This document shows, one piece after another, positions 5,579 through 5,742 of a DNA stretch of 10,374 nt. Made by a program: the position numbers and the translations under genes. The notes under the pieces were generated by a model, which made no database searches, was not told the origin of the DNA, and saw only the letters and a program-made list of their open reading frames with translations. The stretch is from a virus. Lineage: Duplodnaviria > Heunggongvirae > Uroviricota > Caudoviricetes. Location of the stretch: the IMG/VR virus record IMGVR_UViG_2778261513_000006, positions 1-10,374 of that record; one strand, 5' to 3'. Positions within the stretch are counted from its first letter, which is position 1, and every line of letters begins with the position of its first letter.

Positions 5579-5704
5579 GTCACCAGGAGCCGCGGCTCCT
5601 TTGCGTATCCTTTTATGTCTCTTCACCGTCTGGTCGGTGTCCTGCTGAGACTGCTAACTTCCTGTTTTTATTGGTGTTGTCCTTATACCGTCCAATCATG
5701 ATTG

Positions 5705-5742
5705 GCTGGCGGGAGTTGAACCCGCGTCCGAAATTCCTACAT
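5705..5742 (-). other. Prophage attachment-site core: 38-bp fragment matching the tRNA-like 3' region (T-arm plus start of acceptor strand) of tmRNA gene ssrA
   Basis: The - strand reads ATGTAGGAATTTCGGACGCGGGTTCAACTCCCGCCAGC. It contains a canonical T-arm (GCGGG-TTCAACT-CCCGC) and, as I recall it, matches the region just before the ...CUCCACCA 3' end of enterobacterial tmRNA. Both flanks diverge from ssrA, so this is an isolated core copy, not an intact gene. The integrase lies about 1.7 kb to the right and is transcribed toward it. Confidence 0.6.

Follow-up and report, generated by a model that had tools for sequence, protein, structure and literature searches.

Two palindromes at a prophage attachment junction are probably elements of a displaced enterobacterial ssrA trailer

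The window analysed here is a 10,374-nucleotide stretch of viral DNA (IMG/VR record IMGVR_UViG_2778261513_000006) that holds one attachment junction of a P2/186-like prophage. Along the + strand, ypjCB and a broken ypjA/ehaD autotransporter gene are followed by an intergenic module of ~155 nt, a short copy of the 3' end of ssrA, the gene for transfer-messenger RNA (tmRNA), and then prophage genes (Table 1). The module contains two perfect palindromes, pal1 and pal2, which had been noticed in a reading of this sequence alone; we confirmed that both are self-reverse-complementary. Comparison with other genomes indicates that the palindromes and the DNA around them are a displaced ssrA trailer, which as a finding is largely ordinary. 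The overall reading that we favour, with moderate confidence, is that the palindromes are two elements of a conserved ~155-nt ssrA trailer of Enterobacteriaceae, displaced here from its gene, and that this trailer is to be understood as RNA.

The host origin of the palindromes is apparent from genomes in which the locus is uninterrupted. In the island-free E. coli EC_J_9, an identical spacer runs directly into an intact ssrA (...ccgtCCAATCATGATTGGtggagctggcgggagttgaaccc). The annotated tmRNA there ends at TGG, the final three bases of pal2, which are complementary to the CCA terminus of tmRNA. On the ssrA strand pal2 begins with this CCA and continues into the first 11 nt of the 3' trailer; at the junction the intact gene reads ...CCAATCATGATTGGtggagCTGGCGGG on the window strand. 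Among 5426 complete E. coli genomes, 4067 carry at least 80% of positions 5543-5745, and in the sampled matches of this search the sequence lies either under an annotated ssrA or, unannotated, beside some island. In K-12 both palindromes flank the annotated pseudo-ssrA psaA where CP4-57 ends on its right, and the module there is now part of the 3' UTR of ypjF; in an O157:H7 strain both are found beside an island with a different integrase. Altogether, the two palindromes keep a constant distance from each other in thousands of E. coli genomes as well as in other genera and one phage.

The orientation of the junction is given by two relatives. In Ecol_AZ147 (L001), a 97% relative, a P2/186-like prophage lies between ypjA and ssrA with int at its ssrA-distal end, and CV839-06 (L004), 99.5% identical over the junction (5543-5745), has the same prophage placement; the window therefore holds attR, with the palindromes on its bacterial side. 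Both prophage ends are present in Ecol_AZ147, where each palindrome is found once, only on the ypjA-side host flank, and where the ssrA-proximal end (attL) carries an unrelated, phage-supplied trailer that comprises little beyond a terminator. The suggestion that the palindromes might recur at the other prophage end was therefore not borne out. They do flank the att cores of related elements, as the sequence-only reading had proposed to check, yet the reason is that they are host ssrA-flank DNA, present also in the attP of phage LLS. These comparisons show that a P2/186-like phage integrated in the 3' end of ssrA, bringing its own replacement 3' end and terminator, and that integration moved the old ssrA 3' fragment with its trailer, which itself ends in a terminator, to the opposite end of the prophage, attR, beside ypjA. 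By the same evidence, the palindromes are host DNA displaced by integration and do not travel with the resident prophage.

Table 1. Features of the window, by position on the + strand (H, helix; MFE, minimum free energy structure)
Feature	Positions	Strand	Sequence or remark
ypjCB	1-1374	+	
ypjA/ehaD autotransporter, broken	2158-5187 and 5216-5542	+	
Bidirectional intrinsic terminator hairpin, end of trailer module	5550-5578 (hairpin 5554-5575)		AAAGCCCACA/TGTGGGCTTT
H4 (pal1 plus 3-bp extension)	5581-5606	-	Stable stem-loop just upstream of terminator
pal1	5585-5600 (16 bp)		AGGAGCCGCGGCTCCT; identical to own reverse complement
H3	5617-5651	-	Outer stem GUCUC/GAGAC around inner CACCG-ACCAGA-CGGUG
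Linker, nearly invariant, predicted unpaired	5652-5672	-	AUAAAAACAGGAAGUUAGCAG; mostly unpaired in MFE, unpaired in centroid
H2	5673-5689	-	GGUGU-AAGGACA-ACACC type; window copy with one A.C mismatch
pal2 (H1)	5692-5705 (14 bp)		CCAATCATGATTGG on + strand, identical to own reverse complement; CCAAUCAUGAUUGG on ssrA strand (-), forming a weak 5-bp hairpin
Displaced ssrA 3' fragment (prophage attR core)	5705-5742 (38 nt)	-	Partial Rfam tmRNA match
Phage-derived attR arm of the P2/186-like prophage, AT-rich	5743-5871		
gapS1	5872-7413	-	GapS1 profile 401.6 bits, cut-off 320
Tyrosine integrase gene	7407-8426	-	
CI-type repressor gene	8430-9068	-	Rightward early genes beyond; Apl-like protein at 9179-9421

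Both palindromes had been described as lying immediately outside the att core, with pal2 ending exactly where the core begins. This is correct for pal2, which abuts the core (ssrA identity extends to G5705, which is common to both), and does not apply to pal1, which sits 105 bp from the core and 9 bp from the terminator hairpin. The Rfam tmRNA match to the core (29.8 bits, model positions 292-374) is under the gathering score because it is partial. Pal2 touches the core because 5 nt of the displaced ssrA end have been deleted: at the junction 5705-5706, the window is without 5 nt of the acceptor 3' strand preceding CCA (tggag on the + strand; CTCCA/TCCAC). The identical deletion allele is found in O157:H7 beside a different island (L148, 2651-2670), a 1-nt (T) deletion allele is common to K-12 (L002, 23473-23486) and Ecol_AZ147 (L001, ~12306-12311), and in L153 and L161, further lysogens of this P2-like family, the displaced end is undamaged. 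On excision, a damaged allele would yield a defective tmRNA gene without a proper acceptor 3' strand; for the window the predicted post-excision ssrA end, ...GCCAGCCAATC, would be non-functional. In the case of CP4So, excision leaves the tmRNA gene minus one U, which abolishes function (PMC5148205).

Taken alone, the pair of palindromes is statistically unremarkable. When perfect palindromes with zero spacer were counted in 2000 first-order Markov simulations of the window, 0.80 of at least 14 bp and 0.20 of at least 16 bp were expected per window, and the probability of two or more of 14 bp or more was 0.19. Palindromes of such length had been called unusual, and this fails for their number, which fits chance, while their conservation exceeds it. 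Their significance thus comes from comparison with other sequences and not from their count: conservation and covariation are what chance leaves unexplained, and it is on these grounds only that we reject chance as a full explanation.

Read on the minus strand, the module runs from CCA through four stem-loops to the intrinsic terminator. Positions 5549-5705 of this strand fold with -44.3 kcal/mol (z-score -3.4), with pal2, a nested H3, pal1 and the terminator all formed, and RNAalifold yields the same helices as the single-sequence fold; H2 was found by eye and added by hand. Pal1 alone gives -9.2 kcal/mol, and pal1 together with the terminator gives -28.2 kcal/mol (z-score -4.6). The 3-bp extension of pal1 is formed by CAC (5581-5583) with GCG (5604-5606) on the + strand, or CGC/GUG on the ssrA strand.

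Trailer copies for comparison were gathered by anchoring on GACCAGAC. Across 33 sequences of the window type (family A), 96.8% of the cells in predicted pairs are paired, versus 37-44% when the partners are slid by 1-3 columns, and double-sided changes occur at 7 pairs (40 cells), with almost none in the slid controls. The covariation score was reached by none of 500 shuffles, and a first set of sequences behaved similarly. In H2 (variants GGUGU/ACACC, AGUGAU/AUCACU and GUGC/GCAC), three pairs alternate, one between G-C and A-U, one among A-U, U-A and C-G and one between U-A and A-U. The outer pair of H3 occurs as U-A, U.G and C-G, and the inner stem reads CACUG/CAGUG, CUCUG/CAGAG or CAUCG/CGAUG in diverged copies; the constancy of the H3 loop is imposed by the search pattern. 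The terminator shows double changes from G-C to A-U at a pair that is A-U in the window.

Pal1 varies in the same manner. Its majority form, GGAGCCGCGGCUCC, is replaced in B2/ST131 E. coli by GGAGUCGCGACUCC, a double change by which the palindrome is kept (GGAGCC..GGCTCC to GGAGTC..GACTCC), and this B2 variant (GGAGTCGCGACTCC) is found in 9 of 118 viral-contig copies too. Forms with a G.U pair (GGAGCC..GGCUCU) are common, an A-U form (AGAGCC..GCUCU) occurs, and mismatched forms are rare singletons. In every one of the 118 viral-contig copies that contain pal2 and are sufficiently long, pal1 lies at a fixed distance from pal2. That substitutions in pal1 are compensatory and leave it palindromic speaks more for base pairing than for a fixed sequence that is recognised, and the comparisons show pal1 to be maintained as a paired element. 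Compensatory changes are thus seen in H2, H3, pal1 and the terminator; none are seen in pal2, whose variants elsewhere change the putative loop (CCAATCGTGATTGG, CCAATCATAATTGG), make the stem weaker or introduce one U.G (CCAATCATGGTTGG). As for the strand, cells with G.U outnumber those with A.C by 31 to 12 without the pal1 extension and by 60 to 20 with it, and the middle pair of the extension is G.U in 27 of the 33 sequences, pairing only on the ssrA strand. This excess fits an RNA made in the ssrA direction and is suggestive only.

Pal1 is GC-rich, as the hairpin of an intrinsic terminator would be, and is followed by no U run: the next bases are GGUGACAUG on the ssrA strand and only TTTGCG on the + strand. 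Its stem is absent from the list returned by a terminator scan, and the U run belongs instead to the neighbouring hairpin at 5554-5575, where it is longer on the ssrA strand than on the ypjA strand. This hairpin is itself unlisted by the simple scan, probably because A and T runs lengthen its stem. The proposal that the palindromes are RNA hairpins near a transcript end is therefore supported for pal1 and weakly so for pal2, with the qualification that the transcript would be the minus-strand 3' trailer of ssrA and not a prophage-specific RNA.

Beyond E. coli, we scanned one genome per species for an ssrA 3' end followed 50-80 nt on by CCGACCAGACGGTG. The module follows ssrA in E. albertii, E. 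ruysiae and E. whittamii, and also in Klebsiella (two species), Raoultella, Leclercia, Trabulsiella, Enterobacter, Pseudenterobacter and others. In the ancestral locus there is no terminator between the ssrA 3' end and the trailer, and the first hairpin followed by a U run appears at about +130 to +155. In E. whittamii the module is followed by the core gene glaH and no island or phage genes intervene, which means that the module is more than an island boundary.

A looser metagenome scan added more than 100 copies, which comprise family A, a diverged family B and intermediates. Family B (L010, L024, L038, L146, L147 and others) has the layout CCACTTTTGATAGGAC ... ATGCACGTGAAATGCACGTGCAC ... 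terminator and stands next to ssrA in 572 E. coli genomes. It is without pal2, of which it keeps the 3' half (UGAUAGGAC, UGAUWGGAC); at the position of pal1 it has a different sequence in which a 6-bp hairpin is possible; and the terminator is kept. Because only the 3' half of pal2 is kept in this sister family, the palindromy of pal2 may be incidental. Analysed alone, family B has a topology that differs in part, and 13 of its 25 predicted pairs show double changes. The two families were treated separately since MAFFT misaligns family B by 11 nt; a covariance model (R1) scores family A at 80-198 bits and family B at 20-34 bits, and a joint alignment (A4, 356 columns) was too gappy. A search of Rfam 15 returned no family at the gathering score, or at an E value up to 10, beyond the partial tmRNA and terminator look-alikes: nothing was found on 5579-5675, and sub-threshold matches in the trailer fell only on the terminator hairpin or pal1 (mir-138, E = 4). 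Full-text searching of the literature found no description of a conserved ssrA trailer.

Several other identities for the module were considered and set aside. Its density of GGA resembles that of CsrB (7 GGA in ~120 nt in family A), which would suit a CsrA sponge of the CsrB/RsmZ kind, yet GGA is unconserved: diverged loops read AGACA, CGACA or UGACA, and only GAC is kept. A match to rsmX (18.8 bits, E = 0.16) covers only the 3' end of ypjA and the terminator, on the + strand. An open reading frame (ORF) for 28 hydrophobic amino acids (MSLHRLVGVLLRLLTSCFYWCCPYTVQS, 5615-5701, + strand), antisense to the trailer and ending in pal2, is probably not coding, its ATG being TTG in B2 strains and an early stop being present in one strain. 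An ORF starting at an ATG within pal2 on the ssrA strand loses its start or its frame in relatives and is not coding.

Copies of the module are also carried by phages. Escherichia phage LLS has the order int, gene 31, an ssrA 3' fragment (annotated as attP/tmRNA pseudogene), then pal2 ... pal1 and the terminator, so that both palindromes are adjacent to the core in a phage genome; the same location applies to the module of the family B phages, PhiR12, LMessi, phiES15 and CP-1639. Gene 33 of LLS is its putative excisionase gene. Remnants of family A are present in phages Ayreon and phiNP. The Ayreon remnant (L145, ~3000-3110) has a 16-bp palindrome, GGGAGCCGCGGCTCCC, and a truncated H2, with no ssrA core and no terminator, and a promoter is annotated there in the phage record. 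The integrases of LLS and LMessi are 67% identical, with very similar N-terminal regions, and their trailers have diverged into families A and B; the integrase encoded in the window shares with them just the catalytic motif region. One family of ssrA phages thus brings its own copy of the trailer and restores it when it integrates, whereas P2-like phages and CP4-57 put something else in its place.

Within these phage genomes, we compared the two arms of the attachment site. In LMessi, ATGCACGTGAAATGCACGTGCAC at the position of pal1 has a counterpart in the other arm, the repeat ATGCACTTAAAATGCAC (an ATGCAC motif in both arms), and 12 10-mers are shared between the arms versus a shuffle maximum of 7. 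In LLS the shared sequences are GTCTCAGyAGGAC and AAAGGrTACG, not the palindromes, and the count of 8 against a shuffle maximum of 8 is borderline. An 11-nt periodicity is present in family B (z 3.9, P ~0.004) and is not significant in family A (z 1.55); phasing of GAC motifs at 11 nt was therefore set aside as a proof of DNA sites, being significant in family B only.

Under the trailer reading, the module would in its ancestral arrangement be transcribed together with ssrA as the 3' trailer of pre-tmRNA. The pal1 stem-loop, directly upstream of the terminator, would form with it a double hairpin at the transcript end, which would set the 3' end and shield it up to the point at which an endonucleolytic cut frees tmRNA at CCA. 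Pal2 would be at most a weak hairpin at the processing site, with CCA paired to trailer bases +7 to +11. In the lysogen the module is cut off from ssrA, and its only possible roles would be as the 3' untranslated end and terminator of a leftward int-gapS1 transcript and as the terminator of the convergent ypjA; it would have no role in recombination by the resident prophage. A number of observations weigh against this account. The fold of pal2 (-2.0 kcal/mol, z-score -0.66) is no better than that of shuffles, and pal2 is invariant across the 33 family-A sequences, hence without covariation, and missing from family B. An intermediate form of pal1, GGAGCCGCGACTCC, has a C.A pair when read in the ssrA direction, and if each distinct haplotype is counted once, G.U and A.C forms balance (3 versus 3 in pal1, and balanced in H2 too). 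With a mean column identity of 91% (A3), few independent substitution events lie behind the covariation, and a shuffle control can be exceeded by related sequences without any structure. Trailers of this kind are dispensable for tmRNA function, K-12 and the prophage of the window supplying unrelated short ones; the presence of the module in phage attP regions allows a role at the level of DNA; and co-transcription with ssrA, like any role in maturation, is itself deduced from sequence.

How far beyond an ordinary trailer one should go is a separate matter. The ~155-nt stretch is possibly, though we hold this only tentatively, a previously undescribed functional RNA module, either a cis element for pre-tmRNA 3' end formation or maturation or the source of a trailer-derived small RNA (sRNA); its nearly invariant, unpaired AAAACAGGAAGUUAG segment, the penultimate hairpin pal1 and the U-tailed terminator resemble the architecture of Hfq-type sRNAs. 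On such a view, Enterobacteriaceae would maintain the module and ssrA phages would have copied it into attP, so that lysogeny would swap like for like, and in the phage it could double as a 3' element of the int transcript, uncoupled by integration in the manner of lambda sib. The phage copies allow another interpretation, to which we give less credence still: that the 155-bp module is the integrase-distal attP/attL arm of ssrA-integrating temperate phages (of type A in LLS and type B in LMessi, PhiR12, phiES15 and CP-1639), placed downstream of ssrA by integration and then recombination between trailer copies, with the palindromes and the GGAC/AAAGGA repeats serving as sites for the Int arm domain of that phage family, integration host factor (IHF) or Xis-like factors, and with the palindromes of the window as a fossil of such an arm. 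The arrangement in LLS, with pal2 ... pal1 and the terminator after the ssrA fragment, is what this predicts, as is the occurrence of family B in phages and, next to ssrA, in 572 E. coli genomes; the division of the trailers into A and B behind integrases that are 67% identical, the motif sharing between the LMessi arms above shuffles (borderline in LLS, 8 versus 8) and the 11-nt periodicity of family B also speak for it. Sites read by a fixed protein would not be expected to undergo symmetric double substitutions by which pal1, H2 and H3 stay paired, however, and the surplus of G.U relative to A.C is particular to a single RNA strand. The periodicity is not significant in family A, in E. whittamii the module sits between ssrA and glaH unaccompanied by phage genes, and the arm motifs proposed for A and B are wholly different despite very similar integrase N-termini. 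An arm function is compatible with a dual role, and it and the RNA reading could coexist.

Two further explanations are less probable again. That the palindromes have no function, being incidental in a slowly diverging and often exchanged intergenic stretch whose conservation reflects hitch-hiking with ssrA and spread by phages, we regard as rather improbable. By number, the palindromes of the window are compatible with chance, pal2 is thermodynamically marginal and its invariance leaves pairing unsupported, the sequences are very alike (91% mean column identity) and, in K-12 and in lysogens of the phage of the window, ssrA does equally well with short trailers of unrelated sequence; set against this are repeated double changes that restore pairing in pal1, H2 and H3 while slid controls are ~40% paired, the retention of the module across genera and in two diverged families, both with stems and terminator, and a nearly invariant unpaired linker. 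The proposal of the sequence-only reading that the palindromes are dimeric protein sites at the att junction, bound by an Apl/Cox-type recombination directionality factor, Int or a host factor of the resident P2/186-like prophage, has very little left to recommend it. Both palindromes lie less than 160 bp from the attR core, and pal2 abuts it in the window, but the palindromes are on the bacterial side of attR, are present in genomes without this prophage and are missing from its other end, and the abutment results from the 5-nt deletion, which is not found in lysogens L153 and L161 of the same family. In P2, Int arm sites and the IHF and Cox sites are on the phage arms, and attB requires the core alone; the palindromes are not on a phage arm, the location expected for Int arm-type, Apl/Cox and IHF sites. 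The phage-derived arm of the window has tandem repeats of its own, shared with attL. On this comparative evidence, we reject use of the palindromes as binding sites by the recombination machinery of the resident prophage.

These repeats are direct copies of CGCCAATTTG at 5840-5849 and 5851-5860, with an 11-bp period, and a related copy, CGCCATTTTG, lies near attL in Ecol_AZ147 (L001, 21321-21330). Motifs of the CGCCAATTTG type are not significant by count over the whole locus; the repeats are nonetheless more likely than the palindromes to be integrase arm-type sites. Farther into the prophage, transcription of gapS1 and the integrase gene runs in the direction of the core and the trailer, the latter now being located 3' of the int-gapS1 unit, and no strong hairpin was seen between gapS1 and the core by inspection of the hairpins of the window and the terminator scan. 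We also note that the slot between int and attR is occupied by the GapS1 antiphage gene in the window and by an anti-phage dCTP deaminase gene in CV839-06 (L004, 20396-22129); P2/186-like prophages seem to have, at their att-proximal end, a variable slot for defence genes. On the other side of the junction, ypjA/ehaD consists of an N-terminal ORF of 1009 amino acids and a separate beta-barrel end of 108 amino acids, and in relatives the gene is annotated as frameshifted or partial. In the strains and species compared for the gene that directly follows the trailer terminator (L005-L009, L012-L023), this gene varies and includes BRO-N, umuD-like and tail fibre genes, yedK, and a DUF protein with a P4-type integrase; possibly a second hotspot for insertions lies directly beyond the ssrA trailer. 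In Trabulsiella odontotermitis (L014), the usual terminator is absent ~150-200 nt after the CCA of ssrA, and a tRNA-like 3' end, GGAGGTTCAAATCCTCTCGTGCCGACCA, follows.

The palindromes are thus uninformative on the recombination of this prophage, and mapping of its att sites should turn to the phage-derived arm with the CGCCAATTTG repeats. The by-product is of moderate interest: a trailer common to hosts and one phage family, conserved and apparently structured, 155 nt long, with no match in Rfam, that some phages carry in attP and others overwrite. Work in K-12 could not see this trailer attached to ssrA because CP4-57 supplies a different one there. If the trailer matters for the biogenesis of tmRNA, or yields an RNA, strains with and without elements integrated in ssrA would differ in a way not yet considered. 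The frequent damage to displaced ssrA ends bears on whether excision restores the tmRNA gene, and so on prophage stability.

The 38-nt copy of ssrA in the window resembles the displaced 3' fragments of tRNA and tmRNA genes described at other islands, such as psaA at the right end of CP4-57 in K-12 and the fragment of CP4So in Shewanella. As with CP4So, the displaced end is damaged, so that excision would not restore a normal ssrA. The finding differs in that it concerns the DNA past the gene fragment, a conserved and structured trailer of ~155 nt having been displaced too. Pal1, a GC-rich 6-bp stem-loop 9 nt upstream of a hairpin-plus-U-run terminator, is like the 3' stem-loops of stable RNAs and sRNAs; unlike a terminator, it has no U run on the ssrA strand, and it is better described as a conserved penultimate hairpin. 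The 3' external transcribed spacer of a tRNA operon, 3'ETS-leuZ, yields a functional RNA fragment. The ssrA trailer is reminiscent of spacers of the 3'ETS type in that it is conserved and structured, follows a CCA, ends in a terminator and has an invariant unpaired stretch, a likeness that we offer as a lead only. The order in phage LLS, in which int, the att core and a structured module with a terminator follow one another, parallels the int-att-sib arrangement of lambda, integration separating the module from int in each case. Two differences set it apart from lambda sib: no long duplex of the RNase III type is predicted, the longest helix being ~10 bp, and the module is homologous to the host DNA at the integration site.

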